Of a stretch of DNA of 64,000 bases, positions 23,985 through 52,761 are shown in pieces; positions within the stretch are counted from its first letter, which is position 1, and every line of letters begins with the position of its first letter. The stretch covers positions 254,299-318,298 of the forward strand of contig CAVWJI010000002.1 of NCBI GenBank assembly GCA_963755425.1, read 5' to 3'. Source of the DNA: an uncultured Gemmatimonadales bacterium (GTDB lineage Bacteria; Gemmatimonadota; Gemmatimonadetes; Gemmatimonadales; GWC2-71-9). The notes under the pieces are model-generated. The model made no database searches, was not told the origin of the DNA, and saw only the letters and a list, made by a program, of their open reading frames with translations. A program made the position numbers and the translations under genes.

Positions 23985-25173
23985 AAGACCTCCCGCCGTC
24001 CTGACCATCAATGGCGGCTCATCGAGTATCCGGTTCGCGGTGTACGAAGCGGGCACCATACCGCGGCGACGGCTGGCCGGAAAGATCGATCGCATCGGAC
24101 TGAGCGGCACCACGCTGAGTCGCCACCGCGGCGGACGGCCCGGCGCCGCCGGTCCGGCCGCATCGCCGCCGGCCGATCACCGCACCGCGGCCGGCCGTCT
24201 GCTGCAATGGCTGGAGGCACAGCCCGTCTTCGCCTCCGTCAAGGCCGTGGGGCATCGCATCGTACACGGCACGACGCACGCCGAGCCGACCCGGATCACG
24301 CCGAAACTGCTGTCCGAATTGCGTCGTGCCAGAGCGTACGATCCCGATCACCTTCCCCGGGAAATCGGGTTGATCGACGCATTCCGGCGGCGGCATCCCC
24401 GGCTGCCCCAGGTGGCCTGCTTCGACTCCGCGTTTCACCGGGGCATGCCCCCGGTGGCGAAGGCCGTGCCGATTCCGCGACGTTATACGGCGAAGGGAAT
24501 CGAGCGCTACGGGTTTCACGGACTCTCCTACGCTTATCTGATGGAGGAACTCCGCCGTCTCGATCCCGCGGCGGCGCGGGGGCGCGTCATCCTGGCACAT
24601 CTCGGCAACGGCGCTTCGTTGGCGGCGGTCCGCCACGGCAAGAGCGTCGACACCAGCATGGGCTTCACGCCGACATCGGGACTGGTGATGAGCACTCGCA
24701 CCGGCGACCTGGATCCGGGCCTGGTGTACTACCTCGCTCGCACCGCGCGGATGACCGCGCCGCGCTTTCAGCGGATGGTGACTCACGAGTCCGGACTGCT
24801 CGGGGTCTCCGGCACCAGTTCCGATCTGCGTGATCTGCTCGCTCGCGAAGCACGTGACCCGCACGCGGCGGCGGCCGTGGCACTGTTCTGCTATCAGGCC
24901 CGGAAATGGATCGGATCGTTCGCCGCGGTCCTGGGCGGGCTCGACACGCTCGTCTTCGCCGGCGGCATCGGCGAGAACGCGCCGGTCATCCGCCAACGCA
25001 TCTGTGGCGATCTCGGATTTCTCGGCGTCGCGATCGAAAGCCGGCGGAACGCGCGCAGCGCGCCGGTGATCTCCCCGACCCGCCGGCGGGTGACGGTCCG
25101 GGTCATCCGCACCGACGAAGATCTCATGATCGCCCGCTCGGTGATCCGCGTCCTCGCACCCGGCCGACCGTAG
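23981..25173 (+). CDS. ackA: Acetate/propionate kinase
   Basis: INGGSSS, GHRIVHG, FDSAFH, RYGFHGLSY, HLGNGAS, MGFTP, FAGGIGEN, TDE; start region frameshifted. Confidence 0.92.
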
Positions 25174-25197
25174 TTCTACTTCATCCCTTCGAGCGAT
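25156..25197 (+). promoter_or_regulatory. Conserved box site A (tandem GCACCC-N4-GACCGT and TCATCC-CTTC-GAGCGAT) upstream of PRC-barrel gene
   Basis: Main box 25181-25196, ~120 bp before ATG 25318; one of ten similar sites. Confidence 0.6.
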
Positions 25198-25317
25198 TTC
25201 GCTCGCGTGCCGGACGGGATAGGGTTCCATCCAGTGCCGCAGGTGACGTCATCCGATTCCGCGCCCTCCCGATGACCGGTGGAGGTGTCGCCGCCGCCCC
25301 ATGAGAGGACTGTCACG

Positions 25318-26106
25318 ATGTTGCTCAGCGCACGGATGTTGACCGGCTACACCCTGAACTGCCGGGACGGGCAGATCGGTCGGGTGAAGGGTTTCTATTT
25401 CGACGACCGTCACTGGACCGTTCGATATCTTGTCGCGGGCACCGGCGAGTGGCTTGCGGAACGCCAGGTCCTGATTTCTCCCTACGCGCTCGGCGCCGTC
25501 AACCCGACCACTGGCGACATCGTCGTCGATTTGCGCAAGCAGCAAATCGAGGATAGTCCGCCATTGGACAGCGACAGGCCGGTTTCCCGGCAATTCGAGG
25601 ACGCCTACCACGGGTACTACGGCTGGCCCAGGTACTGGGCCGGCTCCAACGTCTGGGGGGCGTATCCGGAAATCGCCCGGAGCCCGGCCGAGTGGACGGC
25701 GCCGTTGGTTCACGAGCGGCCAGAAGATGCCCACCTCCGCAGCACACACGATGTCCGGGGACATCATGTCGAGGCGACCGACGGCGGAATCGGACACGTC
25801 GAGGATTTTCTCATCGACGACAGAACGTGGACCATCCGGTATCTCGTGGTCGGCACGCGGAATTGGTGGCCGGGAAAGCGGGTGCTGGTGTCGCCGGAAT
25901 GGATTGACCGGGTGAGTTGGCCCGAGGCGAAGGTGTTCGTCCACGTCAACCGGGACCGGATCCAGCATGCCCCGGAATACACCGACAAGACCCCGTTGAC
26001 CCGTGCGTTCGAAATCAGCTTGATGGAGTACTACAAGAGCCCGGCATACGAGACCGATGATACGACGGCCACGCCGTTCGCCGGGGGACGTGGACGCGAG
26101 GCCTGA
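25318..26106 (+). CDS. Tandem PRC-barrel domain protein
   Basis: Two repeats of DGxIGxVxxFxxDDxxWTxRYLVxxTxxW...VLISP. Confidence 0.88.
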   Translation: MLLSARMLTGYTLNCRDGQIGRVKGFYFDDRHWTVRYLVAGTGEWLAERQVLISPYALGAVNPTTGDIVVDLRKQQIEDSPPLDSDRPVSRQFEDAYHGYYGWPRYWAGSNVWGAYPEIARSPAEWTAPLVHERPEDAHLRSTHDVRGHHVEATDGGIGHVEDFLIDDRTWTIRYLVVGTRNWWPGKRVLVSPEWIDRVSWPEAKVFVHVNRDRIQHAPEYTDKTPLTRAFEISLMEYYKSPAYETDDTTATPFAGGRGREA

Positions 26107-26200
26107 CGCCCTGTTGCGCGGATGGTGGGCACGCCGGCGCGATGGGCTGCCGATCCGGCAATCAGGCACAATCTCCTGCATCGGGATGTGAGCGATTCAG

Positions 26201-26443
26201 ATGGTGATCTCATGGTTCTGGCTCTGGTTGGTTTTCATGTTCATCTTTTTGAGTTACGGTTGGGGCTACCGCCATTGGGGTCCGCCGTATCCCCGGTATG
26301 TCCAGCGGCGCCGGAGCGCCGGGGCGGCCGCGAACGGCGCCGCGGCGTTCGACCACCATGCCTGGGGTTGGGGCGGCGACGTCGTCTGGGTCATGTTCAT
26401 CGTCGGCATGGTGTGGGTGGTGGCGGGAATCTGGCGGCGATGA
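26201..26443 (+). CDS. Small two-TM membrane protein, Trp/Gly/Tyr-rich
   Basis: 80 aa, hydrophobic ends, YGWGYRHWGPPYP and WGWGGD motifs. Confidence 0.65.
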   Translation: MVISWFWLWLVFMFIFLSYGWGYRHWGPPYPRYVQRRRSAGAAANGAAAFDHHAWGWGGDVVWVMFIVGMVWVVAGIWRR

Positions 26444-26519
26444 GGAGCCGCTGCATCGCCGGCGGCTGACCGGACCGCACGACACCGTGGCCGCATCAGG
26501 AGCCGGTCGATGCGGAGAC

Positions 26520-26533
26520 TTGATGTCGATGAA
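26520..26533 (+). promoter_or_regulatory. Putative FNR/FixK/Anr-type box
   Basis: TTGAT-GTCG-ATGAA, one mismatch to TTGAT-N4-ATCAA, ~90 bp upstream of the xfp start. Confidence 0.5.
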
Positions 26534-26621
26534 TCCGACGCCGTGACGGACCGGCGCCGGACATACCCGACGGGCGCCCTGATCGTTGATCGCGTCGACT
26601 GCCGCAGAAGGAGTTGCTGTC

Positions 26622-37361: not shown

Positions 37362-37499
37362 CTACTTCTTCTGCACCATCTTGACGATGACGACAACCAG
37401 GAAGATGGCGAGCAGGATGCCGACGATCGGCCAGATTCCGTACCCGCCAATGGCACCGCTGCCACCGTGATTCATGAAACCGTTGGGCGTTTGCTGCAT
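37362..37499 (-). CDS. 45-aa single-TM small protein
   Basis: GGAGG RBS; MQQTPNGFMNHGG...WPIVGILLAIFLVVVIVKMVQKK; conserved box 112 bp upstream. Confidence 0.6.
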   Translation of the reverse strand: MQQTPNGFMNHGGSGAIGGYGIWPIVGILLAIFLVVVIVKMVQKK

Positions 37500-37609
37500 C
37501 GCAACCTCCCGGACACTCCGTGCCGATATCGTGACGAGACTCCCAGCCCGAGCCCGGACAGCGCAAGCTCGACGTTGCGGAAGGAGAGCCGGATGCTGCC
37601 AGAGGGACA

Positions 37610-37626
37610 ATCGATCAAAAGGAGGA
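37610..37626 (-). promoter_or_regulatory. Conserved box site B (TCCTCC-TTTT-GATCGAT on minus strand)
   Basis: 112 bp upstream of the 37499 start, in gene orientation. Confidence 0.6.
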
Positions 37627-37754: not shown

Positions 37755-37771
37755 TCATCCTTACGACCGAT
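37755..37771 (+). promoter_or_regulatory. Conserved box site C (TCATCC-TTAC-GACCGAT)
   Basis: ~115 bp upstream of the SPFH start; shares upstream TAGTTCT with site A. Confidence 0.6.
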
Positions 37772-37885
37772 GGCGTCGGCCTGGCGATACCCCGAACTTG
37801 AGCGCAGTGGTCGCGGGGTACCCGTTCGCGTGCCGGCACCGGGCATGGCGCCCGGAGTCCGGTGATTGGTGCCAGGGACAATCCG

Positions 37886-38803: not shown

Positions 38804-38839
38804 TCAGATCGCGCGCTGACCCATGGCTGCCGCACCCCT

Positions 38840-38880
38840 TCGCTCTTCCGAGTGACCTCCGGTCCATCCATCCGAGCGAT
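38840..38880 (+). promoter_or_regulatory. Conserved box site D (tandem TCGCTC-TTCC-GAGTGA and CCATCC-ATCC-GAGCGAT)
   Basis: Main box 38864-38879, ~110 bp upstream of the 38990 start. Confidence 0.6.
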
Positions 38881-38989
38881 ACCCGTGGTCCGCTCAACGG
38901 CCTACACTTGAAGTCCGTGCCGGAGGATGCCCTGGCGCCTGGATTCCTCCAGCGTTCGGTCTCCCGGTCACGGACTCAAGGGAGCGCAT

Positions 38990-41002
38990 GTGTATCGCCA
39001 TCGTATCTTCGCAGCTTTGTTGGCCGGCGCGCTGTGTGGCTGCCAATCAGCCGCGGCACAGGCCACCGATCCACCCAGCCAGGTCGGTCGCGTCAGTGAC
39101 GTGATCGGAGCGGTTTCGCTGTTGCCGGTGGACGATACCGTCTGGAGCGACGCGTCGCTCAACTACCCGCTCACCAGCGGCGACCAGCTCTGGGCCGACG
39201 CCGATGCCCGCGCGGAGATCGACTTTGGTGCCTCATCCGTGCACCTCGCTCCCTCGACCGCCCTGGCGCTGGATGCCATCGAAGAGCAGGTCATCCAGCT
39301 GCGGATCGGCCAGGGCGCGGTGCAGGTCCGGGTCCGGGAGCTGCTGGCGGACGACAGTTACGAGATCGACACGCCAGCGGGCCCGGTGCTGTTGCGCTCC
39401 GCGGGCGATTATCGGATCGATGTCACCCCCGACGGACAACGGACCACCGTCACGGTGCGCGAGGGCAACGCCGACATCATGATCGGCGACCAGGCATATC
39501 CGGTACGCCCGGCGACATCGGCGACGATCCTCGCGGCCGGATCGCGGCCGATCATGAGTGACGCCCCGATTGCGCGCGATGACTGGGAGAACTGGGCGGA
39601 TGCCCGCGACCAGCAGGCTGATGCCGCGGTGGCGACCCGATACGTCTCTCCCGACATGGTCGGATACGAGGATCTCGACACCTACGGTGACTGGCAGGTG
39701 GACGCCACCTACGGCCCGATCTGGTATCCCCGATCCGTCGCCGCGGACTGGGCACCATATCGCGACGGTCACTGGGAATCGGTGCAACCGTGGGGATGGA
39801 CCTGGATCGACGACGCCCCTTGGGGCTTCGCACCGTTCCACTACGGGCGCTGGTCCCACAACAGCGGACGGTGGGGTTGGATTCCGGGCACCAGACTCGC
39901 ACGTCCGGTGTATGCCCCGGCACTGGTCGCCTACGTCAGTGGGGACGGATGGGGCGCCTCCTTGTCGTTCGGGTCGAGCGGCGGAGTCGGCTGGGTGCCG
40001 TTGGGACCGAACGAGGTGTTCGTCCCGGCCTATCACACCACGGCGACCTATCGTCGCAACGTCAACAGCGGCAGCGTCAACGTGACGCGCGTCGACGTGA
40101 ACCGCTTCGACCCCGCGACCGCACACTTCGTCAACCGGAACGTGCCGGGTGCGGTGACGGCGGTGCCCCGGGACGCCTTCGTCGGATCCCGGCCGGTAAG
40201 CCGCGCCGCGGTGCGGGTGCCCCGCAACGATCTCACGGCGGCCCGGACGACGGCAGCACCAGTCGCCGCAGGCCGGCCGATTGCGGCCCCGCGGGGCGGA
40301 TCGCCGGCCCGGGCTCGCCCGGCGAACGCCGGCACCGTCAGGCGGCCACCGGTGGCGTTGCCGCGAGCTTCGCGTCCCGCGATGCGTCCCAGCTCGCCTG
40401 CCGGCACGCCAACTCCGCGACCGGCCACGCCCAACGCCGCGCCAGCCAGAGGCCGTGCGAACGTAACGCCCCCGAGACCGTCGACACCGAGTCCACGGGC
40501 CGGTGCACCCGCGAGGCCGGCGACAGCGCCGGCACGCGGTCGCGCCACGCCGACACGGCCCACTCCTGCCGCACCACCGACAGCGCCGACACGCGGTCGC
40601 GCCACGCCGACACGTCCCACGCCTGCCGCACCACGGGCAGCGCCGACACGCGGTCGCGCCACGCCGACTCGGCCCACTCCCGCCACGCCGACGCATCCGA
40701 CGACGCCAGCACCCGCCAGGAAACCGGTGCTACCGGCGAATCCGGGTCGCGGCACGCCGCCGCGATCGCCGACGATCCCGGCACGCGGCCACGGCAAGCC
40801 GGCGGACACCGTTCACGCCGCGCCGGCACGGTCCACTCCCGCCACGCCGGCGCACCCCACGACGTCACCCGCCAGGAAACCGGCGCCACCGGCGAATCCG
40901 GCTCGCGGCCACGGCAAGCCGGCCGACACCAGTCATGCCCGCAAGCCAACCGCGCCCGACACCGGGCGCGGCGGCGGCACGGCAGCCGGCATCAACGGAT
41001 GA
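38990..41002 (+). CDS. Secreted FecR-like / DUF6600 protein with Pro/Arg/Thr-rich repetitive tail
   Basis: Signal peptide; NYPLTSGDQLW, GYEDLDTYGDW, WAPYRDGHW, PWGWTWIDDAPWGFAPFHYGRW, GWVPLGP. Confidence 0.85.
   Translation: MYRHRIFAALLAGALCGCQSAAAQATDPPSQVGRVSDVIGAVSLLPVDDTVWSDASLNYPLTSGDQLWADADARAEIDFGASSVHLAPSTALALDAIEEQVIQLRIGQGAVQVRVRELLADDSYEIDTPAGPVLLRSAGDYRIDVTPDGQRTTVTVREGNADIMIGDQAYPVRPATSATILAAGSRPIMSDAPIARDDWENWADARDQQADAAVATRYVSPDMVGYEDLDTYGDWQVDATYGPIWYPRSVAADWAPYRDGHWESVQPWGWTWIDDAPWGFAPFHYGRWSHNSGRWGWIPGTRLARPVYAPALVAYVSGDGWGASLSFGSSGGVGWVPLGPNEVFVPAYHTTATYRRNVNSGSVNVTRVDVNRFDPATAHFVNRNVPGAVTAVPRDAFVGSRPVSRAAVRVPRNDLTAARTTAAPVAAGRPIAAPRGGSPARARPANAGTVRRPPVALPRASRPAMRPSSPAGTPTPRPATPNAAPARGRANVTPPRPSTPSPRAGAPARPATAPARGRATPTRPTPAAPPTAPTRGRATPTRPTPAAPRAAPTRGRATPTRPTPATPTHPTTPAPARKPVLPANPGRGTPPRSPTIPARGHGKPADTVHAAPARSTPATPAHPTTSPARKPAPPANPARGHGKPADTSHARKPTAPDTGRGGGTAAGING
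40522..40930 (+). repeat. Three 57-bp tandem repeats (19 aa, RGRATPTRPTPAAPxxAPT) plus ~80-bp and ~30-bp duplications
   Basis: ACGCGGTCGCGCCACGCCGAC at 40534, 40591 and 40648; TPATPxHPTT..PARKP..PANP twice; RGHGKPADT twice. Confidence 0.85.
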
Positions 41003-41664: not shown

Positions 41665-42669
41665 CTAGTTCGGCGGCGCGGCGGCCGGCACCGCATGACA
41701 GGCACCGCCGCTGGCATCCCAGTCATGGCCATCGACATCCAGGAACGCGGCGCGGAATTCGCCCTTGCCGAGCGTCAGCTTGAGGATTCCGAAGTATCCC
41801 TCGACGCGTGCGGCACTGTGTGGGGCCGGCGTGCTCCGGAAACCTCGCAGGTCGCCGCCACCGGTACCCACGACGTACTCCGGAATGCCCTGCGCCGAAT
41901 CAAGCACCCCGGCCGGGGTCTGCGGCAGAAAACGCTCATAGTCGTGATCGTGGCCATTGAGGACCAGGTCCGCGCCGCCGTCGTAGAGAATCTGCCAGAT
42001 CGGTTGCAGGCGCCGGTCGCCGCCGTGCCACCCGGAGCTGAAGCGGGGATTATGCCAGTAGGCCAGGGTGCAGAGCTTCTGGGTGCCTTTGAGGTCGCTG
42101 CGAAGCCAGTCTTCCTGCGCAGCCCGCTGGGCATTGGTAAACGCGGAACTGACCACGAGTTCGGCGTTGAGTGAGATCACGTGCCAGTCACCGACATCGT
42201 AGCTGTAATAGCCCTTCGACGGCGATCCGGCGCGGCTGCCGAAATACTTGAAGTAGGGCGCGGCACCGCCCGTCTGGAATTCGTGATTGCCCGGCGACGG
42301 ATGGATCTTCTTCATGATGCGTTTGGCCGTGTCGCCCCACGATGGTGTGAAGCATCGCGAAAAATCGCTGGCCCGTCCGTCGGGATAGGCGTTGTCACCC
42401 AGCGTGAAGACTTCGACATTCACCTTGGCAACACTGTCGGCCCGCAGGAGGGTGTCCAACAGCACCGCGGTCCGTTCGTCGCCGTTGGTGCCGCAGACGG
42501 CGATGTCACCGGCCCCGAGCAGCACCGACGCGCCGGATGCTGCAATGTCAGCGGGGGCCGCCGTGGCCGGTGCCGGCGTGACCTGTACCGGGATCTTGCA
42601 CGACATTGCCGCGAGCGTCGCCAACATCGCCAGGGCCAACCGACGGGGCTGCTTCTTGAATCGCGTCAT
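41665..42669 (-). CDS. Calcineurin-like metallophosphoesterase lipoprotein
   Basis: Lipobox AMSC; AGDIA, LGDNAY, PGNHE, YWH, GHDHDYER, VGTGG. Confidence 0.88.
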   Translation of the reverse strand: MTRFKKQPRRLALAMLATLAAMSCKIPVQVTPAPATAAPADIAASGASVLLGAGDIAVCGTNGDERTAVLLDTLLRADSVAKVNVEVFTLGDNAYPDGRASDFSRCFTPSWGDTAKRIMKKIHPSPGNHEFQTGGAAPYFKYFGSRAGSPSKGYYSYDVGDWHVISLNAELVVSSAFTNAQRAAQEDWLRSDLKGTQKLCTLAYWHNPRFSSGWHGGDRRLQPIWQILYDGGADLVLNGHDHDYERFLPQTPAGVLDSAQGIPEYVVGTGGGDLRGFRSTPAPHSAARVEGYFGILKLTLGKGEFRAAFLDVDGHDWDASGGACHAVPAAAPPN

Positions 42670-45261
42670 GGCAGTGTCACTCCGAGCACGACGGCCGCCG
42701 GACGCCCCACCTCATTGGCGCGGACCACCCGGACATCGAGCACAAGCTGGTGAAAGCCGATCCAGAACCCGGCACCGAAGGCGTTGTGCCACCCGCCCGG
42801 CGAGTCGCCATGCACGTAGACCCGGCCCAGATCCTCACTGGCCAGCAAGCCGACATTCAACGGCAACACCACCGTGAACGTCGCCACCGGCAGGCGCAGT
42901 TCGGCGCTGGCCGACAGGGATGCGTCCCCGGCGTACCGATCGAGGTCGAGGGTCCGCACGTCGTCCCGGCCGCCGATGAATGCCGATTCCTGAAAGGGGA
43001 AGGTCCCGAACACCTTCACGGCGCCGCCCTGGAGAGCCAGATAGGGGTGCAACGGCATCGGGATCGTGAAATCGACCCCACCCCTGGCACGGAGTGATTC
43101 GAATCCGTGCCGGACATCCCATACCGGCGGGAAATAGCTTGCGCTGAGCTGCAGCATCGTGCCGCGTTGCGGGTGGTGCGACGGCCAGCGATTGTCGTGG
43201 GCGAAGACCACCCGCACCCCGGCCTCGCCGAAATTGCCCGCGCCGTAGGGCCGGACCGCCGACACGAACCGGTCCGGCGTGCTGTCCGTGACCGCGTATT
43301 CGAACACCGGGCCGAAGGACAGATTCGTCGTTGGCGCGAGAGAGAGTGCCAGCGCCGGTTCCACGAGCCACTGGCGCTGGCTGACGGCGAAATAGTCGGT
43401 TCGCCGGGCCGGTAATGCCGACCACCTGCTCCGCGCTCTGGGGTGAGGAATTGCCGAACCCGTGGAAATTGGTCAACTCCAGCTGGGACATCCGCACCAG
43501 TCCGGAGAAGTGCCACGGCGAGCTTTCCATCCGGCGGTCGGCCGCCAACGCGACCCTGAATCCGCCGATCCTGAAGGAGTACTGACCCAGCAGCGATACC
43601 ATCGTGGTGTAGGGCGTATCGCGGAACCCGTAGCCATGCCATGTCATGCCGACCGCCGGCATGACGCCCAGGTCGTGATTGATGCTGAGCCCGACCACCG
43701 GCGCCATGCTGGCGCCATAGTCGCGCCCCGGCTGGTCCAGCCCGCCAAATTCATGTACGAAGGGTCGTCGGTCGAACAGCGTGTCGGCGCCGTAGCTGAC
43801 GTCTCGTGTCGCGCCCACATCGTGGAAGTGGGTCGGGCTTCGATGGCCATCGACGGTCGACGAATCGACCAGCCGATTGGTGCCATTGCCGCCGATCACC
43901 CAGACCGGAATGCTGCCGGTCACATCGCCGGTCACCAGGGCGTGGTCATTGCCGCCGGACAGGTAGACCCGGATTCCGGTCGTTTCGCGCGCATCGAACC
44001 GCCGGATGTAGAACGGCGCGGCGTCACCGGTCGCCAGGCGCACCTCGACATGGGAATCGTCGACCCGGATGATGGTGGCGCGCGCCGCGGCGTCGGTCGC
44101 GTGGATATCGACGACCGCCGCGAGGTACCGGTAGAAGCGCTGCGCCATCGCCGGCAGCGTCCGGCGCCGCGCCCGCAGCGTTGCGATCAGGTCCGGGGAC
44201 AGGGCCCGGTACTCGGCGGGCATCGCCAGCATCACCGCATCCAGTACCGAATCGGTCAATCGCCCCTGGACCGAGCGCGCCACCGAGTCAAAGGCTGCCT
44301 TCCCGAGCTCGCCAAGCAGCCGCCGGTCCAGCTGCAGGCTGTTCCAGGTCAATCCCCGGATACTCGGGTAGTTCCGCCCGAACGTGATGAGGTTCGGCGT
44401 CGACATCCTCGTCAACCCGGGCAGGAATCCCGTGACCGAGATGAACGCCTTGTCGTAGTCCTGCGAGATCGGCTCCCAGCGGCTCCCGCTCGCCGGCATT
44501 CTCGCCCATTTCCATTGCCCGGGATGGCGGTCCCAGTTGTTGACCAGCATGTCAACGAGGCGCGCGGCCAGAAACGTCCGGGCGTCGACCTGCTCGGCCG
44601 GATCGTGATCAAGCAGTTGCAGGAGGCTGTCGCTGTTGATGATGGCGATGGCGCCGTCGAACCCGGCGCGGTCGCCCTTCGGTCCCCGGGGATGCAGCTC
44701 CAGTACGCCGAGCCGGTTGGCGAAGACGGCGCGAAACCGGCCCAGGAGGGTGTCGTCCGGCATGACGACCAGCACCGGAGAATCGTGGAGGACGCCGACC
44801 GCCTCGAGCAGCGGTGGCACCATGACATTCGCGGCGGGGTGACTATCGCTGATCTGGTCGTGCGCGAGCCCCTCGGCAATCGGCACGTCGCGAAACCCGG
44901 CCGGCACCTGGACATGGTCCTTGTCCACGGAGCGGAAGGTATATTCGGCGCCATCCCGGCCGGTGAACGTGAGCGATTTGGTCTGCGTCCCGCCACCAGC
45001 CTTGTCGACGGTCATTCCACCGTCGAACGCGCGCAGATCCAGGACGGGAACCCGGATCGGTGTGGTCCAGAGATCACGGTAGCTGCCGCCGAACAGGAAG
45101 CGATGCAGCCCACCGGCCTGGTAATGCGCTCCGGCCTCGACCGTGACGCTGTCGGCCGTGTGCACGTCCGGCGCCGCGTGCTGTGCCTGCGCCTGCACCG
45201 GCAGCAGCACCAGGCAGGCGCCGACGCCGCCCCGCGTGGCGACGATGAGCCGTCGCGTCAC
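42666..45261 (-). CDS. Outer-membrane protein with N-terminal kinase-like domain and C-terminal Omp85/BamA-type beta-barrel, frameshift near 43395
   Basis: Signal peptide; GGGTQTKSL, NWDRHPGQWKW, QDYDKAF; C-terminal amphipathic strands with IGGRDDVR, RYAGD, AELR, DLGRV, WHNAFGAGFW. Confidence 0.75.
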
Positions 45262-46346
45262 TTGGCCGCCAGCTTCTCTTGCGCCACCGCATCGCCGACT
45301 TCCAGATCGGCGGTGACAATCCGGTCGCCAGCCCCTTCGCGAATCGCGGTCAGCAGATGTTCACGGGTGATTCCCCGGCGGACGCCGACCAGGTAATACA
45401 GTTCCGATGGCTTCCCCTCTGTCGTGGTCACTTCGTCCAGTCGCCAACGCCGCGCCATCAGGTCCAGGACCGTCGCGATCCGGCTTTGCGCCTCGCCGAC
45501 AAATCCGGTGCTGACCGTCAGGATCGAGTTGAAGCGCGGACGCTTCTGGCTCGAGCCAAGAATCCGATGCACCCGATCGAAGCGATTGGCGAGAAGGGCT
45601 GCCTTGTTGGGCGAGAGGGCGAGCACGAGGTCGCGATCCGGAACCCCGCGGCCGGAATTGGCCTGCGCGAGGTCGCCCAGGGGCTCGGCCCATTTCGATC
45701 CTGCGGTCGGCTCCAGAACATTGCGACCGAAATCGTATCGCCAGATCAGCAGGACAACAAAGTTGAACGCAATGGAGAGCACGGCCGCGACGATCAGGGA
45801 CTGCACCCCCGCCGCCAGCCCGACGCCGATGCCGAGAAAGATGTAGACCGTGTCGCGGACATCCTTCATCGTGGTCCGGAACCGGAGGCCCGCGACGATT
45901 CCGCCAAGGCTGAACGCGAGGGCGAGGCTGGTGCGGACCACCAGCACGATGCCGGCCACCACGATCGGGAGAATGATCAACGTCTGAACGACGCCCTGGC
46001 TGAAGTCGTGGGCCCGCCGCGCCGACATGAATACCCAGCTCACGGGGATCATCAACGCCAGCGTGCTGAGCATCACCACGATCGTCGTACCCGCAAGCGC
46101 CAGGCCCGTTTCGGTCGTCGCCGCGGCGGCGTGATCCTTTGCCGACGACAATCCGTCCTGCAACAATTGCGAATTGGTGGTCAGAGTCGCAGCCTGCTCG
46201 CCGCGGAGCAGCGAGCCGATCGGCGGGACAAGATGCATCAACACCAGGATGATCGCGGCCAGGATGGCGTAATAGGCGAGCAGCCGTCGCAGGGGGCGCT
46301 CGGACCCGAGGGCGAGAATGTCGATCAGCCGCTTGAATCGTTCCAT
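45258..46346 (-). CDS. DUF4956 family membrane protein
   Basis: QTLIILP, SLALAFSLGGIVAGLRFRTTMKDVRDTVYIFLGIGVGLAAG. Confidence 0.82.
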   Translation of the reverse strand: MERFKRLIDILALGSERPLRRLLAYYAILAAIILVLMHLVPPIGSLLRGEQAATLTTNSQLLQDGLSSAKDHAAAATTETGLALAGTTIVVMLSTLALMIPVSWVFMSARRAHDFSQGVVQTLIILPIVVAGIVLVVRTSLALAFSLGGIVAGLRFRTTMKDVRDTVYIFLGIGVGLAAGVQSLIVAAVLSIAFNFVVLLIWRYDFGRNVLEPTAGSKWAEPLGDLAQANSGRGVPDRDLVLALSPNKAALLANRFDRVHRILGSSQKRPRFNSILTVSTGFVGEAQSRIATVLDLMARRWRLDEVTTTEGKPSELYYLVGVRRGITREHLLTAIREGAGDRIVTADLEVGDAVAQEKLAAK

Positions 46347-46473
46347 GAAATCGCCAGGCCCGCAGTACGTCCTTGGCGAGACGACCGGCTGCCGTCCGCA
46401 AAGCTCCCCGTTCAGGCCTCGCCCGGGGAGAGAATCCCGCAACGCAAGGTGGGTGGACGGATCGGCGTGGACA

Positions 46474-46515
46474 ATCGCTCGTAGGAACGATGTGCGGACG
46501 CGCTCCGAGGAGCGA
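46474..46515 (-). promoter_or_regulatory. Conserved box site E (tandem TCGCTC-CTCG-GAGCGC and TCGTTC-CTAC-GAGCGAT on minus strand)
   Basis: Main box 46475-46490, ~130 bp upstream of the DUF4956 start. Confidence 0.55.
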
Positions 46516-46541: not shown

Positions 46542-46820
46542 CTACACCGCGGTGACATCCTCGTCCGCATCGGGGTCGGTGTCTTCGTCTTTCACCAGAT
46601 CGGTGCCACGGTCGTCGTTGCTGCCGCCACGGAAACCGTCGGCAAAGTGTTCGGCGGTGTCGCTGGCGAACAGCGCGGACACGTCTTCGCTGGTGCCACT
46701 CGAGCGGCCGGTGAGCTCCTCGGGCAGCGGTGTGCCACCTTCGAGCTCCGGTGTATCGGGCCGACTCGTCTCCTCGACGTGATCATGGCGCTTCGCGCCG
46801 GACTGCCTCTCGCTGGACAT
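46542..46820 (-). CDS. Small acidic hydrophilic, probably disordered, protein
   Basis: GGAG RBS; 92 aa very rich in D/E/G/T; follows the AI-2E gene. Confidence 0.5.
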   Translation of the reverse strand: MSSERQSGAKRHDHVEETSRPDTPELEGGTPLPEELTGRSSGTSEDVSALFASDTAEHFADGFRGGSNDDRGTDLVKDEDTDPDADEDVTAV

Positions 46821-46866
46821 GTGATCGTCTCCGGGAAAGAGTGGTGTCATCCAACGTGTCGCGCCC

Positions 46867-47940
46867 TCAGGCCTCCAGGAACGTCCCCAGTGGCCCGAGC
46901 GCCTCGATATGGTCGCAGAAGATCTTGACCGCGGCCACGATGGGGACGGCCAGGAATGCCCCGACGACGCCCCACACATACCCCCAGAAGAGGACCGCGA
47001 TCAGCACCGCGACGCTGTTGAGCTTGAGTCGATTCCCGTAGAGCAGCGGGCTGGCGACGTTGTTCTGCACCAGGGAGATGACCAGGTACGCCACCGGGAT
47101 CAGGACTGCGTGCCCCAGCGTATCGAACGTGGCAAGAGCACTGATCGAGAGCAGTACCACCAGGACCGCACCGCCGACGTAGGGAATGAACTCCAGCGCG
47201 ACCGTCAGCACCGCCCAGAGTCCGGGTGCGGGCATGCCGAGTGCCCACATGGCCAGCCCCACGATGGTGCCCTGCACCAGGTTGATCAATGACGTGGTGA
47301 CGAGATACCGCGACACCGAGGATTCGACCTCCGCGGCGATCTCTGCTGCGGTACGCTTGCCGACTCTGCCCGGGATGACCCCCACCAGTCGGATCAGGAA
47401 TCGCCCCCCGGCGGCGAGCAGCAGAAACGACATCAGGACGACTTCGACTCCGCCGGCGATGACACTCTCCGTCGTCCCGAAGACCGCGTCGACGAACCGG
47501 GGCTGTGCTGGCGCGACCGTCACCGATCGGGGCGACGTGGCCGATGGACTGGTGGCGTTGCCAAGATCGTCGGCGGCCGCGGTCACCTGCTGGAACGGCT
47601 TCCACATCCGTTGCAGCCGGATCCGGGCGGCGCGCATGTTGCCGGGCGCATCGGCAATCCAGGTACGGGCGGGATGGGACAGCAGGACAACGCCGCCGCC
47701 CATGACCCCGAGGAGTCCGAGCATGACAATGGCCGCACCGGCCGGCGCCGGCAGGCGGGCCCGCTCCATGCTGCGGACGATCGGCCGGAGCAGCGTCGTG
47801 AAGAACAGCGCCAGCGCGATCGGAACAAAGAAGTCACGACCGATGTACAGGGTGCCGATGATCCCGAGTATCGCCATGACGGCGAGCGCGATCGTCCGGA
47901 TGCGTTCCGCGGCGGGCAGGTGAGGTGATGTCAGAGCCAT
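46867..47940 (-). CDS. AI-2E family transporter
   Basis: FFVPIALA, SRYL, FIPYVG, NVASPLLYG, WGYVWGVVGAFLAVP. Confidence 0.9.
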   Translation of the reverse strand: MALTSPHLPAAERIRTIALAVMAILGIIGTLYIGRDFFVPIALALFFTTLLRPIVRSMERARLPAPAGAAIVMLGLLGVMGGGVVLLSHPARTWIADAPGNMRAARIRLQRMWKPFQQVTAAADDLGNATSPSATSPRSVTVAPAQPRFVDAVFGTTESVIAGGVEVVLMSFLLLAAGGRFLIRLVGVIPGRVGKRTAAEIAAEVESSVSRYLVTTSLINLVQGTIVGLAMWALGMPAPGLWAVLTVALEFIPYVGGAVLVVLLSISALATFDTLGHAVLIPVAYLVISLVQNNVASPLLYGNRLKLNSVAVLIAVLFWGYVWGVVGAFLAVPIVAAVKIFCDHIEALGPLGTFLEA

Positions 47941-47983
47941 CCCGGCACCGTTGGAAGAGCCTCGCAACCTGGCCGCGACGGGT

Positions 47984-48325
47984 TCAGACAGCCGTCGATC
48001 GATAGGCCATGACCCGCAACAGCTGGTGGATGGCCAGGTGCAGCACGACGTATACCCCGATCGCAACCAGGATCGGCACGGCCAGCGTGAAACCGCCCGC
48101 CACGTTCTGGTTGGACAGGATGCCCCGGAACGGCGCGAAGAACGGGCTGGTAATCGCGTCCACGAATCGCACGAAGCCGGCCCACGACCGCGCCGAGAAG
48201 AACGCCAGGATCCCCCGGATCAACAGCAGGCTGTACAGCAGCCAGAAGAAATAGTTGATGAACTGCGACAACCGCGCCAGGCCACGTTGCCGACCGGGTA
48301 TCGGAACCACGGGGGAACTGCTCAA
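47984..48325 (-). CDS. YggT family membrane protein
   Basis: LLLIRGIL, FVRFVDAITSPFFAPFRGI, LVAIGVY; GAGGAG RBS. Confidence 0.8.
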   Translation of the reverse strand: MSSSPVVPIPGRQRGLARLSQFINYFFWLLYSLLLIRGILAFFSARSWAGFVRFVDAITSPFFAPFRGILSNQNVAGGFTLAVPILVAIGVYVVLHLAIHQLLRVMAYRSTAV

Positions 48326-48381
48326 GAGGTGCTCCTCGCGACGTCACTCGCCGCCAACAGATCGAACGCCGTGATGACTGC

Positions 48382-48666
48382 TCACGCCCGCGAGGCGCGC
48401 GCGGGGCCGTGATGACCCAGCCAGCGAGCATATTGCGTCGCGGCCTGATCGTCCCGGCCACGAAGCAGTGCACCCGAGTCCGTGTGGTCAAGTCGCCGAG
48501 CGGCTTCTTCGAGCGCTGCTTCAGCGGCCGCAACACGTCGCGTTGCCTGGCGCAATGCCTCCCGCGCCCGCGCAGCGTCCTCCCGCCTCCGCCGGAGCTC
48601 GATGCCGCCCAGCGCCACCGCGGCAACGGCTCGTATATCGTCCAATTCCGGCATCCCGCCCGCCAT
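48382..48666 (-). CDS. Hypothetical coiled-coil protein
   Basis: ATG with GGAG RBS; heptad-like Ala/Arg/Glu helix; conserved box 122 bp upstream. Confidence 0.45.
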   Translation of the reverse strand: MAGGMPELDDIRAVAAVALGGIELRRRREDAARAREALRQATRRVAAAEAALEEAARRLDHTDSGALLRGRDDQAATQYARWLGHHGPARASRA

Positions 48667-48786
48667 CTCCCGTCCCTCCGTCCGCCGGCAGCCCTCCGCG
48701 ACATGGTGGGAGAGGACAGGCCGTGAAGCCTGCCCCCCGCGGGTGGTGCAGCGAAGGGAACTTCGGGGACCCGCAACCGGGAGGCA

Positions 48787-48803
48787 ATCGATCGAAATAG
48801 TGA
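48787..48803 (-). promoter_or_regulatory. Conserved box site F (TCACTA-TTTC-GATCGAT on minus strand)
   Basis: Upstream of the 48666-YggT-AI-2E operon. Confidence 0.55.
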
Positions 48804-48840: not shown

Positions 48841-48882
48841 ACGATCCTTGGGTCGAGAGCCCGTCTCACCCCAACGATCCAT
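48841..48882 (+). promoter_or_regulatory. Conserved box site G (tandem ACGATC-CTTG-GGTCGA and TCACCC-CAAC-GATCCAT)
   Basis: Main box 48866-48881, 60 bp upstream of the 48941 start; 9-bp gap between boxes. Confidence 0.6.
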
Positions 48883-48940
48883 GGTGTCCGCGCCTGCACC
48901 GGGGTGATCTTTCCTGTCACACTCGTGGAGATGATCAACG

Positions 48941-49324
48941 ATGAAAATCGCAACATGGAGTGCAGTTTCGATGGCCGCCGGCCTCGCGCTGGCGACCGCA
49001 GCGTGCGGGCCCGGTTACCGGACGACCCGGATATCGGCGAGCGCCCAGCTCGGACCGGGAATCGACATCTACAGTTACTCTGCCTCGCAGGATGGCGATT
49101 GGCATGCCAACTACCGGCAATGGACGCCGGTCACGGTCTATGAGATGAACGGCAGCTACTATCCGAACCAGGTGAAGGGCGGCCGCGAAGTGCAGGTCTA
49201 TCGCACGTCAGGCGGGTACATGCTCCCGCCGCAGCGACCAGAACATGAGCCGCACCGACAAGCGCCTGAACGCCAGGAACTGCCGAACAGCGCCGACTAC
49301 TCCCGGGCGCAGAACCGGCCCTGA
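48941..49324 (+). CDS. Lipoprotein with one copy of an unrecognised ~90-aa domain (two compensating indels at ~49235-49280)
   Basis: Lipobox TAAC; AQLGPGI...DGDWHANYRQWTPVTVYEMNGSYY...VYR...YMLPP; paralogous to 51432..52109. Confidence 0.75.
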   Translation: MKIATWSAVSMAAGLALATAACGPGYRTTRISASAQLGPGIDIYSYSASQDGDWHANYRQWTPVTVYEMNGSYYPNQVKGGREVQVYRTSGGYMLPPQRPEHEPHRQAPERQELPNSADYSRAQNRP

Positions 49325-49410: not shown

Positions 49411-49470
49411 CGGTAGGCGGCTGGAACGCGCTGCAACATCGGCGCGCCACCCGGATGGGGCGTGACGCCA

Positions 49471-50225
49471 TCACGGACCGGGCGGAGTGCGGCCGCGGCG
49501 GCGCGTCTGATGGGTGAACGCCGCGACTTCCAGGCGGCTGCGCAGGGCCAGCTTCTCCAGCACATTGTGCACGTGGCTCTTGACGGTGTGCACCGCGATG
49601 TTCAGCCGCTTGGCAATTTCCTTGTTGCTCAACCCCTCGCCCAGCAGGTCGATCACCTCGCGCTCCCGGATGGTGAGTACGTACCAACTCCAGCGCCTTG
49701 GCCGCCCCCCCGAGTGCGGGTCAGCACGATCTGCGAGAAGAGGGTGGTCGTCAAGGCGGGCGGCAGCACCTCGCCACCGGCCGCGACGATTTCGATCGTG
49801 GCGAAGAAGTCCTCGAACGAGGCGCTCTTCATGATGAATCCCGAGGCGCCGGCCCGAACGTACTCGGCGACGTCCTCCTGCAGCGGCAACAGCCCCATGA
49901 CGATCACCCGGGCGGCGGGAACCTCCCTCCGGACCGTCGCGGTGAGGCTGATGCTGTCATGGTCCGGCAGCCCGAAATCGAGCAGCACGACGTCCGGCCT
50001 GGCTTCGCGCACGCTCCGCAACGCCTCATCCACGTCGGCGGACGCCGCCAGCACCTTGAACCCGGGCCGCGAGTGGATCAGCGAGACGATCCCTTCCCGG
50101 AGCAGCCGGTTGTCCTCGATGAGGACCAGCGCAATGGAGCGGTCTACGCGCTCGGCAGGCACCGGCGAGTCGCGCCGGGATGCGCCAGATGCCGAACGCT
50201 TGGAACGCTTGGCTTGAGGCGCCAT
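49471..50225 (-). CDS. NarL/LuxR-family response regulator (REC + HTH), frameshift near 49680
   Basis: LIEDNRLLREG, PDVVLLDFGL, GASGFIMK; LTIREREVIDLLGEGLSNKEIAKRLNIAVHTVKSHVHNVLEKL. Confidence 0.92.
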
Positions 50226-50359: not shown

Positions 50360-50509
50360 TCAGACGACGCGCCGGCCGCGGATGATGCGAAGAATGACCA
50401 CGATCAGCGCGATGACCAGCAGGATGTGAATCACCCCGCCCATCGTGTATCCGCTCACCATGCCCAGGGCCCAGAGGACCAGCAATACCACGACCAGCGT
50501 TTCCAGCAT
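50360..50509 (-). CDS. lmo0937/DUF5670 family small membrane protein
   Basis: MLETLVVVLLVLWALGMVSGYTMGGVIHILLVIALIVVILRIIRGRR; GGAGG RBS. Confidence 0.88.
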   Translation of the reverse strand: MLETLVVVLLVLWALGMVSGYTMGGVIHILLVIALIVVILRIIRGRRVV

Positions 50510-50544
50510 TCGAGCACCCTCCGTTCGTCGCGTCCTGCGAGAGG

Positions 50545-50724
50545 TTATGAAAGCGACTTCGCTGCCTTCACGCGAGCCGCCTTGAGCTTCTTGAACGCCT
50601 GCTCGGCCGTCTTCCGGGATTGGGAGACTGCCGCATCCGCGCCCTTGACCGCCTTGCCGCCGAGTTGGCCGGAGACCACCCGGGCTCGCCCGGCCACGGT
50701 CTTGATGCTTCGTCTGTCGGTCAT
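50545..50724 (-). CDS. 59-aa basic amphipathic small protein (loosely CsbD/LEA-like)
   Basis: GAGGG RBS; Lys/Ala-rich helix; co-oriented with the lmo0937-like gene. Confidence 0.5.
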   Translation of the reverse strand: MTDRRSIKTVAGRARVVSGQLGGKAVKGADAAVSQSRKTAEQAFKKLKAARVKAAKSLS

Positions 50725-50828
50725 GTAATCCCTCACTGCGTAAAGTGTCTCCTGCTGGTGCAATCAGTAAGGCGCTGGATGCCCGCCGGCGTAAAGGGAG
50801 ATCCCTCGGCAGGTTGCCTTGCCACGAC

Positions 50829-51182
50829 TCACCCAGCCTGCAATTCACCGGTGCACGACGCGCGGGACCGCGCGTCAGCGCTCCCGAACGGCCCGGCCCG
50901 ATACCCGGCAGCCGTGACGAGGAGAAAATCCGCGCCATCACTGTTCGCGACGAATTCCGGGATCGTGCGGGTGAACCAGAGTACCGCCTGCTCCACCACC
51001 GGCCGGTCGCCAGCCGGGATGACAGCCCGGATCGGACCCTTCCAATCCCGGCAGGCCATCACCCGGTCGAACGCCGCGGCCAGCTGGTCGAACCGATAGC
51101 CCGTGATGGCCAGCGAATCATATTCCCCGTTGTTCTTTCGCCGCACGCCGTCTCCTGTCACGAAATGAATCCCGTACCCCAT
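50829..51182 (-). CDS. Hypothetical protein
   Basis: GAGG RBS; globular-looking sequence (AAFDRV..DWKGPIRAVI..AVLWFT..VTAAGYRAGP); conserved box upstream. Confidence 0.6.
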   Translation of the reverse strand: MGYGIHFVTGDGVRRKNNGEYDSLAITGYRFDQLAAAFDRVMACRDWKGPIRAVIPAGDRPVVEQAVLWFTRTIPEFVANSDGADFLLVTAAGYRAGPFGSADARSRASCTGELQAG

Positions 51183-51336
51183 CCGCCTCGCCTCACGATG
51201 CCGATCACCCGGATCGGCGCCGCCGGTCCGTCCACCGGCCGCGTCCGGCGGCGAGGTGGGAGGAGGCAGGCCATGCGGCCTGCACTCCCTCGGTGTGGCA
51301 GGAACGGAAAGGTCGTGCGGTGGCCCGTCGCGAACA

Positions 51337-51353
51337 ATCGATCCGATGGGTGA
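51337..51353 (-). promoter_or_regulatory. Conserved box site H (TCACCC-ATCG-GATCGAT on minus strand)
   Basis: ~155 bp upstream of the 51182 start, which heads the gene run containing the regulator. Confidence 0.6.
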
Positions 51354-51431
51354 TATTGGATTGAGTCTCCGCCGGAAACCCCGCGGTTCGTGCAACCGGC
51401 GGTGTCCTCACCAACGCGATCCGCCCGTCGA

Positions 51432-52109
51432 TCACGGCCGGATCCGCACCTGGGCCCGGTCAGCCGGTGTCGGCCGGTGACGGTAGTCGTATCGGGTGTC
51501 GAAACCCACCCAGGCGTGGTCCTGAGGTGGCAGGAAGTATTCGTCCTCGTAGCGGTAGACTCCCACCGCACGCGCGCCGACCGCGTCGTTCGTGTAGTAT
51601 CGCCCGTTGACCGCGTATACCGTCACCGGAGTCCAGCGTTGGTAATCCGCCCGCCAGTTGCCGGCGCGGTCGGACGAATAGCCCAACACGCCGATCTCCC
51701 GGCCAAGACCCGCACGGGCCCTGCCGGTCGCCGGGTAGGGACGCTCGCGGGCATAGTCCCTCGAATTCGGCCGCCGCCGGTAGTTGTAGCGTTGGTCAAA
51801 GCCGACCCATGCCTTCTCCTCCGGCGGCATGAAGTAACCCCCGTGATAGGAATAGACATCCACCGCGCGGGCACCCGGGACCGGGTGGCGGTAATAGTGA
51901 CCGTTGACATCGTACAGGGCGACCGGCGTCCAGTGCCGATAGCTGGTCCGCCAGTTGCCGTCCTGATCTGCCGCGTACCCGGTGACCCCGATCTCGGGCC
52001 CGAGTTGCGCGCCGAAGCGCACGGTGACCGGGGCCTGGGCCGGCGCGCGCGCCGGCAGGACAACGAGGATGCCGGCCAGCGGCACGGTGAGCAGGTCTGT
52101 GATACGCAT
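51432..52109 (-). CDS. Secreted protein with two tandem copies of the unrecognised ~90-aa domain
   Basis: Signal peptide; two repeats of LGxEIGVxGYxxDxxGNWRxxYxxWTPVxxYxVNGxYY...GARAVxVYxYxxxYFxPPxxxAWVGFDxRYxYRxRP. Confidence 0.8.
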   Translation of the reverse strand: MRITDLLTVPLAGILVVLPARAPAQAPVTVRFGAQLGPEIGVTGYAADQDGNWRTSYRHWTPVALYDVNGHYYRHPVPGARAVDVYSYHGGYFMPPEEKAWVGFDQRYNYRRRPNSRDYARERPYPATGRARAGLGREIGVLGYSSDRAGNWRADYQRWTPVTVYAVNGRYYTNDAVGARAVGVYRYEDEYFLPPQDHAWVGFDTRYDYRHRPTPADRAQVRIRP

Positions 52110-52183
52110 TCGGTACTCCAATCGCATGACGACATGATAGCACTTCCAGCACCGGAAGCTACCGTGCCCGTCAGATGCATCCT

Positions 52184-52225
52184 ATCGATCGGAAGAGCCG
52201 ATGGCGCGATCGCTCGGACGATGGA
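52184..52225 (-). promoter_or_regulatory. Conserved box site I (tandem TCCATC-GTCC-GAGCGA and CGGCTC-TTCC-GATCGAT on minus strand)
   Basis: 76 bp upstream of the 52109 start; 9-bp gap between boxes. Confidence 0.6.
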
Positions 52226-52306
52226 GTCCGACCGGGTGCACGTCGGGGGCAATACCTGGCCGGCCGGCGCCTGCCGCGGCACAGCGCGGCGATGTTCGCT
52301 GCAGGC

Positions 52307-52573
52307 TCACTGATCCAGGCGATCGGACTCGCTCACGAGCTTGTGGCGAGCCAGGACAAGGACGGCGCCCACGCCATCAGGCGACTGGCTTGTTCGGGCC
52401 GCAATTTCCTGGTAATCCATCCCGGCGTTCCAGAGCTCCAACGCTTCGTGCTCGCGCCGCGACAGGGCCTGCATCGCCTGCTTCGCGCGAGCGGCCATCG
52501 TGATCCGCATGGTCGTCAGCTGCTGGCGCAGTCCGTCGTCGGCCGGAATCGGCACTCCCCTCGGTAGCCACAT
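52307..52573 (-). CDS. Stand-alone sigma-70 region 4-like HTH protein
   Basis: AMQALSRREHEALELWNAGMDYQEIAART...VGAVLVLARHKL; no region 2. Confidence 0.65.
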   Translation of the reverse strand: MWLPRGVPIPADDGLRQQLTTMRITMAARAKQAMQALSRREHEALELWNAGMDYQEIAARTSQSPDGVGAVLVLARHKLVSESDRLDQ

Positions 52574-52744
52574 CTGTCAGCCCCTGTCCATCGCAGGCCC
52601 GCTGCCCGATGGCGGCGACCAACGACAACATCCCTGGCGGTCGGCCCGATTGCCGCCGCCTTCGTTCGCCCCGGCGCACGACAACCGCTGCGGACCGGAT
52701 AATCTGTTCCGAAAGAAGCGTATCAAAATGGCCGCGAACGGGCC

Positions 52745-52761
52745 ATCGATCGTTGGGATGA
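52745..52761 (-). promoter_or_regulatory. Conserved box site J (TCATCC-CAAC-GATCGAT on minus strand)
   Basis: Best match to the consensus; ~175 bp upstream of the sigma4-like gene. Confidence 0.6.

Follow-up and report, generated by a model that had tools for sequence, protein, structure and literature searches.

DevR/DosR of Mycobacterium tuberculosis, a NarL-family response regulator with dedicated kinases, controls a multi-operon stress and dormancy gene set from palindromic boxes located just upstream of the −35 element. Proteins typical of the SigB (Bacillus) and EcfG (Alphaproteobacteria) regulons include CsbD, Transgly_assoc, PRC-barrel, and glycine-zipper proteins, along with small membrane proteins. 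In Escherichia coli, NarL activates from a 16-base-pair (bp) site of the 7-2-7 form abutting the −35 element at yeaR and from tandem sites at −44.5 and −77.5 at ogt, with −67.5 also being a working position (PMC7419079, excerpted text). The BldM palindrome of Streptomyces is a 16-bp site of the 6-4-6 form with half-site TCACcC, and a non-palindromic variant of it is read by a BldM–WhiI heterodimer (PMC4125116, excerpted text). Here, we describe ten predicted box-promoters in a 28-kb gene island within a 64,000-nucleotide (nt) stretch of DNA from an uncultured soil Gemmatimonadales bacterium (hereafter “the window”; C2:254299-318298, contig CAVWJI010000002.1 of assembly GCA_963755425.1), for which a first-pass annotation made from the letters alone had proposed an operator box used by an orphan NarL-type regulator encoded at 49471-50225. 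We confirm that the box is a real, oriented, and intergenic motif, and show that it is tightly linked to one NarL/FixJ regulator subfamily across Gemmatimonadales. All testable parts of the earlier interpretation (motif, orientation, conservation, and regulator linkage) held, and the system is well supported as an undescribed regulon of a familiar kind with a conventional mechanism. Full-text literature searches returned no described regulator–operator pair or stress regulon for Gemmatimonadota and nothing on this regulator or box, and the main-text portions consulted of the Gemmatimonas phototrophica transcriptome papers PMC9862903 and PMC11406998 mention neither the regulator nor the target genes.

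The source bin (G000) comprises 2.96 Mb in 6 contigs at 68–69% G+C and is rated 57% complete; genes were called with a home-made caller, and start codons are the most plausible ones. All ten 16-bp strings were found at the coordinates and on the strands first assigned to them, each followed by a T. By these gene calls, 10/10 boxes are intergenic, and box orientation matches the strand of the downstream gene throughout, flipping at both divergent regions. From box end to best start codon, the distance is 121 nt for the site at 25181, 111 for 37611, 115 for 37755, 110 for 38864, 128 for 46475, and 121 for 48788, i.e., six of ten sites within 110–130 nt as previously claimed, and 59 (48866), 155 (51338), 57 (52185), and 172 nt (52746) for the others. 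At ≤1 mismatch, the consensus TCMYCCNNNNGAKCGAT had 9 matches in the window against 1.38 expected, a count reached by 0/100 shuffles, and 7 of these were sites listed in the first-pass annotation. The excess was weak at ≤2 mismatches (27 matches vs. 17.7 expected; 2/100 shuffles reached 27). When 17-bp matrices were built leaving one site out, the held-out sites ranked 5, 12, 5, 13, 11, 11, 18, 12, 219, and 5 among 5,928,022 genome positions, nine training sites included; the site at 52185 was thus the sole weak one (rank 219), the other nine ranking 5–18.

Beyond the island that holds the ten sites, the 17-bp box by itself is not rare: 203 matches of ≥13 bits were detected in 2.93 Mb, and 11 of the strongest 13 (≥17.1 bits) lie in coding sequence. 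Core words (GATCGAT, GAGCGAT, and similar) are likewise common and show no intergenic enrichment genome-wide. Downstream −10 features, however, accompany 10/10 island sites vs. 1/203 of the box-like matches outside the island. In a gap-free alignment of the ten sites, a hexamer tAnnnT stands 22 nt after GAKCGAT (T in 6/10, A in 8/10, and the final T in 10/10); this is the core of a sigma-70-type −10 element, in columns that the first-pass annotation had not used. A −35-like T-T/G-G directly follows the box (T in 10/10, then T or G, then G in 8/10), 17 nt before the −10. Because these −35-like bases begin with the T after the box, the box ends exactly at the start of the −35, i.e., it abuts the −35 of a predicted sigma-70-type promoter, a position typical of activator sites. 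The same gap-free box/−35/−10 register is found at 10/10 island sites and at 115 sites from relatives (transcript starts being predicted). At most of the ten promoters, both the −35 and the −10 are poor. A sequence-only model of the box-promoter (R1; rough E-values), built from 36 promoters (10 from the island, 6 from the same-genus chromosome G019, and 20 from other genomes), retrieved the ten sites from the assembled genome at E = 8.9e-8 to 2.1e-4 and nothing else below E = 0.089. The idea of an RNA element was set aside because the window matched no Rfam family at gathering thresholds.

The column profile also bears on two alternative explanations of the motif. First, the motif could be an alternative promoter of the extracytoplasmic function (ECF) sigma type, with CATCC as −35 and CGAT as −10. 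A CATCC-like word does occur 17–18 nt before CGAT at 4/10 sites, and boxed genes include a sigma-region-4-like gene and, in relatives, ECF sigma genes. However, this word is missing at 6/10 sites and the corresponding columns carry little information, the tAnnnT at fixed distance downstream marks a real −10, and a 6-4-6 inverted repeat with a second copy 25 bp upstream behaves as an operator would. The ECF-sigma reading, which we consider very improbable, was dropped after the column profile. Second, the copies could be relics of duplicated promoter cassettes or of a small repeat element, without shared regulation, in line with the similar leaders of the promoters at 48788 and 51338, the paralogous coiled-coil open reading frames (ORFs) of the 48788 unit and the 51338 operon, and the paralogy of the 127-amino-acid (aa) and 229-aa targets. 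This is scarcely credible and already contradicted by the column profile, as conservation is confined to the box, −35, and −10 columns, with about 0 bits in the spacer columns; in addition, the genes behind the sites are unrelated, and the sites recur both at orthologous positions and in other families of the order.

Several promoters carry a second box. Across the 115 sites from relatives, a distal box (T..tCCCTTCGARCTAG) is found in an exact 25-bp register, separated by 9 bp from the 16-bp proximal box and within 25 upstream columns lying outside the search matrix. Scored with a matrix from other genomes only, the distal box was significant in the island at 38864, 46475, 48866, and 52185, borderline at 37755, and short of significance at the remaining five sites, which agrees with the second box previously reported at five sites (4/10 significant plus 37755). 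If transcription starts 7 nt beyond the −10, as assumed here, the proximal box would span about −51 to −36, with predicted centers near −43.5 for proximal and −68.5 for distal copies.

From this architecture, we consider it probable that the ten boxes are operators of activator-dependent sigma-70-type promoters, and that the island regulator binds them and switches on the ten units. A dimer of the regulator (49471-50225, in one frame) would bind the proximal box against the −35, a second dimer would bind the distal box where present, and the bound dimers would bring RNA polymerase to promoters with an intrinsically weak −35 and −10. Ten transcription units, the regulator’s own operon included, would in this way be switched on; since that operon is boxed in both G000 and G019, this would give positive feedback. 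The signal may arrive via a kinase encoded elsewhere, or without a kinase. We infer activation rather than repression, and an envelope plus general-stress module for the ten units.

The E. coli NarL promoters (yeaR-yoaG and ogt) provide a close parallel in several respects: same regulator family, a 16-bp site (here an imperfect inverted repeat that would take one dimer), one site abutting the −35, and a second site upstream, with the predicted centers of about −43.5 and −68.5 here comparing to −44.5, −67.5, and −77.5 for NarL (PMC7419079, excerpted text). Unlike NarL, however, the system described here has other half-sites, a 6-4-6 form, a tandem spacing of 25 bp instead of 33, no adjacent kinase, a Gly for the receiver Ser/Thr, and another gene set in another phylum. 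In gene content, the system resembles the SigB and EcfG regulons (CsbD, Transgly_assoc of the YmgE/GlsB type, PRC-barrel, and glycine-zipper proteins, plus small membrane proteins). What its promoters have in common, however, is an operator preceding an ordinary −35/−10 and not an alternative sigma promoter.

Next, we evaluated the conservation of the box across related genomes. In G019, a single contig of 3.33 Mb and the closest relative holding the locus, R1 detected 6 sites at E ≤ 1.1e-4, all within 2,933,757-2,941,188, the next match being at E = 0.055. These six boxes stand at orthologous positions and all lie ≤5 kb from an intact regulator at 2,936,319-2,937,071; together with boxes in other genomes, they bear out the prediction that the box would be kept upstream of orthologs. 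The G019 island is shorter and devoid of the PRC, SPFH, and DUF4956-to-Metallophos modules. Elsewhere in the G019 chromosome, no box-promoter was detected. Judging from this pair of islands, the regulon seems to expand through the gain of boxed modules next to the regulator. The blocks missing from G019 correspond to 23.9-33 kb (PRC-barrel), 33.8-38.8 kb (SPFH and mini-protein), and 41-46.3 kb of the window, each of which is boxed here.

We then surveyed 120 further genomes of the order, taking an R1 match at E ≤ 0.005 as the motif and a homolog at E ≤ 1e-40 as the regulator. R1 matches were detected in 36/120 genomes and close homologs of the regulator in 35/120: 26 genomes had both, 9 the regulator only, 10 the motif only, and 75 neither. 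After excluding training-site matches, the motif was found in 21/35 regulator-positive vs. 10/85 regulator-negative genomes. (The regulator, motif, and sigma4-like tallies over these 120 genomes include G101, and the 127-aa family tally below includes G024; no conclusion depends on either.) Boxed genes elsewhere encode orthologs of the DUF6600, two-repeat, and 117-aa proteins, as well as an AI-2E transporter, ice-binding-like, glycine-zipper, DUF5670, CsbD, and Transgly_assoc proteins, and an ECF sigma factor. The best 80 loci encoding relatives of the regulator were all from Gemmatimonadales, Gemmatimonadaceae, or Gemmatimonadota.

A locus-centered view gave a stronger, positional link. We collected 79 loci with orthologs of the regulator at 66–81% identity and searched for kinases and boxes within ≤3 kb. 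Overall, 63/79 loci carried a total of 115 box-promoters vs. about 0.3 expected, 107 of which are on the regulator strand and 44 of which start 0–100 bp after its stop codon, while the same matrix gave 2 matches in G000 away from the island (2.93 Mb) and none in 59.8 kb from 19 unrelated loci of other genomes. The gene behind the first box after the regulator is often a 45–55% identical paralog or a 117-aa homolog, and the recurrent genes across the 79 loci are the regulator (79), the paralog (about 30), and the 117-aa gene (27). Box and protein also change together: with the recognition helix HVRNVM, the right half-site is G(T/C)GCGA in 8/13 boxes, and with HVHN it is of the GA type in 11/12. 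This pairing is suggestive of a direct read-out of the box by the regulator, though it is confounded with phylogeny. By position and co-occurrence, the box is tied to orthologs of the gene at 49471-50225, in line with the earlier assignment, with binding itself being predicted.

The NarL/FixJ-family response regulator (49471..50225, −) comprises a REC domain (49653-50225; PF00072, Response_reg, 4.4e-17), a linker, and a GerE helix-turn-helix (HTH) domain (49471-49656; PF00196, 1.6e-13). Its best solved relatives are NarL (1a04, E = 1.3e-33) followed by DevR (3c3w, E = 8.7e-29), although it is not a NarL equivalog (NF007935, 154.8 bits vs. a cut-off of 250). The likeness to DevR/DosR lies in this second-best solved relative within the same family; the gene content is unrelated and the DevR box is different. 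Phosphorylation pockets of receivers include an acidic pair, an acceptor Asp, a Lys, and a switch Ser/Thr. Compared to NarL, the acidic pair (DD), acceptor Asp, and Lys are kept here, and the Ser/Thr position is a Gly, as in 100/101 family members. That the window holds no kinase, as noted from the start, was verified: 0/30 HATPase_c and 0/2 HisKA_3 matches of G000 fall there. With five query kinases, a kinase-like ORF was found within ≤3 kb at 15/79 ortholog loci.

As assembled, the regulator is split over three frames. Compared to the intact 251-aa ortholog of G019, this three-frame reading results from two extra bases of 1 nt in the linker, one near 49722, just upstream of a G7 run at 49705-49711, and another near 49676. 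A public soil-run contig, 98% identical and covering 49635-49827, is without the extra bases at 49676 and 49722, and the frame breaks would thus be consensus errors or strain-private. The linker breaks look like a consensus error, or else a strain-private pseudogene. Of the public runs listed as containing this stretch, none was an RNA run. One variant of the receiver was seen in another genome (G092), in which L096:14119-16023(−) encodes a 634-aa protein with a receiver-like N-terminus (68% identical to the regulator receiver) and a nitronate-monooxygenase/IMPDH-like domain.

Several of our observations weigh against the assignment of the box to this regulator as a simple dimeric activator. 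The repair of the reading frame relies on one low-depth contig (depth 3.3) of a 98% identical population, and none spans the whole regulator. Since G000 is 57% complete, the restriction of the motif to the island applies only to what has been assembled. Part of the training set of the search matrices came from regulator loci, at least 3 of the 79 loci (L122, L135, and L172) being training contigs, and related genomes are not independent of each other. No non-training match was found in 14/35 regulator-positive genomes, and 16/79 ortholog loci are without a box within ≤3 kb; conversely, the 10/85 regulator-negative genomes with a match include G051, with three matches and a best E of 1.6e-7. 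Finally, the 25-bp period would place the two dimers on different faces of the helix, and the two halves of the box are systematically unlike, which is unexpected for a simple homodimer site.

The matches in genomes without a close homolog of the regulator (three of them strong in G051), the boxless regulator loci, and the broken frame in G000 would also fit an operator bound by another transcription factor encoded elsewhere, the NarL-type regulator being only a frequent member or neighbor of the regulon; since its own operon carries a box in G000 and G019, it could be no more than a target. We nevertheless regard this as unlikely: no further DNA-binding gene recurs consistently close by at the 79 loci, all 6 G019 sites are within ≤5 kb of the regulator, recognition helix and box change together between lineages, and a 16-bp 6-4-6 site suits a dimer of GerE-type HTH domains. 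The sigma4-like gene of the island was also tried as a conserved regulator and rejected. Beyond G000 and G019 it is without orthologs among the 120 genomes of the order, other matches being the region-4 part of 170–200-aa ECF sigmas. This absence excludes it as the conserved factor; by this comparison, it is a predicted target and not a candidate regulator of the conserved system.

The asymmetry of the box raises a further alternative. The box is a 6-4-6 imperfect inverted repeat, TCAYCC-N4-GAKCGA, within the size range of sites bound by NarL/LuxR-type dimers. Symmetry is 62% at positions 1/16, 79% at 2/15, and 94% at 6/11, and the inner three positions differ systematically, so that the left half TCAYCC differs from TCGMTC, the reverse complement of the right half. 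Co-variation between half-sites within boxes, which would speak for a homodimer, was sought and none was found. Correspondingly, the regulator could bind as a repressor or dual regulator, or only as a heterodimer with a degenerate paralog, resembling the non-palindromic BldM–WhiI sites that keep one BldM half-site (PMC4125116, excerpted text). Many relatives indeed encode a box-driven paralog directly downstream of the regulator (e.g., L103:7554-8255(−) and L102:11852-12526(−)), often with the acceptor Asp replaced by Asn and the pocket Lys by Ala, i.e., a possible pseudo-receiver partner. No such degenerate paralog was found in G000 or G019, where the best other homolog is 41% identical, yet both genomes have the same asymmetric box. 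Activators, moreover, usually bind at sites lying entirely upstream of a weak −35 (PMC7419079, excerpted text), and most promoters here have a poor −35 and −10. Overall, repression, dual regulation, or obligate heterodimers appear decidedly unlikely; because the halves are unlike, without co-variation, and without a paralog in G000 or G019, the heterodimer idea is not part of the activator reading that we favor.

The BldM system is nonetheless similar in being an orphan without a neighboring kinase, in its 16-bp site of the 6-4-6 form, and in its half-site TCACcC, which corresponds to the left half of the box, and the degenerate pocket of WhiI has a counterpart in the degenerate paralog of the relatives studied here (PMC4125116, excerpted text). 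In contrast to BldM and BldM–WhiI, the right half is GAKCGA, searches of G000 and G019 yielded no paralog, the pocket is kept apart from the Gly, and the targets are stress and envelope genes instead of developmental ones; the likeness is one of sites and does not imply homology of the regulons. A broader proposal would be that Gemmatimonadales run a stress/envelope response through this orphan NarL-family subfamily, with its Gly-type receiver and, in many genera, a degenerate paralog, instead of through an alternative sigma factor, the asymmetric box being read by a BldM–WhiI-like heterodimer or by a dimer contacting sigma region 4, with little or no kinase input. We consider this extension tentative and, as a whole, rather unlikely.

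For the favored activator reading, the targets of the ten box-promoters are as follows, the gene names given at first (PRC, Band_7, FecR plus DUF6600, DUF4956, YGGT, AI-2E, DUF5670, REC, and GerE) being borne out by Pfam. Box-promoter 1 (25181..25225, +; box 25181-25196, −35-like 25197-25202, −10 25220-25225; R1 E = 7.1e-7) would drive the gene of a PRC-barrel protein (25318..26106, +; PF05239, 4e-11). Box-promoters 2 (37582..37626, −; box 37611-37626, −10 37582-37587; R1 E = 1.5e-4) and 3 (37755..37799, +; box 37755-37770, −10 37794-37799; R1 E = 1.2e-5) are predicted to drive the gene of a 45-aa membrane mini-protein (37362..37499, −) and an SPFH/Band 7 protein gene (37886..38803, +; PF01145, 7e-36), respectively. 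Box-promoter 4 (38839..38908, +; distal box 38839-38855, proximal box 38864-38879, −10 38903-38908), which is kept in G019 and, before DUF6600 orthologs, in two other genomes, would control the FecR plus DUF6600 lipoprotein gene (38990..41002, +; Pfam), with start and lipobox taken from ortholog comparison.

Box-promoter 5 (46446..46515, −; distal box 46499-46515, proximal box 46475-46490, −10 46446-46451; R1 E = 8.9e-8) precedes a gene run at 41665..46346 (−) with DUF4956 (45258-46346), an 808-aa BamA/TamA-like gene (42835-45261), and Metallophos (41665-42669), identified by Pfam and, for the 808-aa gene, by Atlas. As to the “Omp85” label of the 808-aa protein, its Atlas likeness to BamA/TamA clusters is 0.98, with 48–54% of the members of these clusters carrying PF01103, while the protein itself has no Pfam or NCBIfam match. 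The 808-aa gene is followed by the Metallophos gene, and one nearby Atlas cluster (0.87) contains members with Omp85 and Metallophos together, a hint that the two genes may function as a pair.

At the second divergent region, box-promoter 6 (48759..48803, −; box 48788-48803, −10 48759-48764) would drive a gene run at 46542..48666 (−) with a 94-aa coiled-coil ORF (48382-48666), YggT (47984-48271), AI-2E (46867-47940), and a 92-aa gene (46542-46820), and box-promoter 7 (48841..48910, +; distal box 48841-48857, proximal box 48866-48881, −10 48905-48910) a 127-aa exported protein of an unnamed family (48941..49324, +; no Pfam or NCBIfam match); both are kept in G019. So is box-promoter 8 (51309..51353, −; box 51338-51353, −10 51309-51314; R1 E = 9.5e-8), whose predicted targets are a 117-aa gene (50829-51182), small ORFs, and DUF5670 (50360-50509), forming a run at 50360..51182 (−) upstream of the regulator, and, in the same run, the response regulator itself. 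The 117-aa protein has no Pfam or NCBIfam match, its Atlas matches are all <0.9 and without a common family, and a single-sequence AlphaFold model reached a pLDDT (predicted local distance difference test score) of 51.5. The minus-strand leaders behind the boxes at 48788 and 51338 (48690-48760 and 51240-51310) have in common a GC-rich hairpin with a CCTCC-rich stretch behind it, possibly as a common translational control element or through duplication.

Lastly, box-promoter 9 (52156..52225, −; distal box 52209-52225, proximal box 52185-52200, the weakest, −10 52156-52161) would drive the gene of a 229/231-aa two-repeat exported protein, a paralog of the 127-aa protein (51432..52127, −), and box-promoter 10 (52717..52761, −; box 52746-52761, −10 52717-52722) an 82–88-aa sigma-70 region-4-like small protein (52307..52573, −) with weak, below cut-off Pfam and NCBIfam matches; both promoters are kept in G019. 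The latter protein could represent a truncated ECF sigma, or else a small protein that stands alone and either binds DNA or acts as a decoy.

For a phylum abundant in soil, these results provide a testable pair of one regulator subfamily and one 16-bp box with a defined promoter geometry. Several of the listed genes encode conserved proteins without an assigned function (the 117-aa family, the 127-aa repeat family, DUF6600, and DUF4956), the box-promoter model permits promoter and regulon annotation across the order, and the promoters offer an inducible design for a phylum without genetic tools.

The 127-aa and two-repeat targets belong to an exported family of ~115 aa, also found in tandem two-repeat forms, with 7 matches in G000 and detection in 28/41 relatives. 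Its members, for which no Pfam or NCBIfam match was obtained, include 48941-49324 and 51432-52127 in the window and C2:60241-60591 and C2:633020-633649 elsewhere in G000, and several copies are box-driven. The next-best R1 match after the ten island sites (C2:633716-633776, E = 0.089) precedes a gene paralogous to that of the 127-aa target. It is one half of a weaker divergent box-like pair outside the window (C2:633716-633807, E = 0.089 and 0.31), beside a two-repeat protein paralog, and the assembled genome offers no other candidate regulon member beyond the island. Elsewhere in the window, positions 10000-20000 reach 72–74% G+C, compared to 66–69% in the rest, and have weak coding scores in the gene caller.

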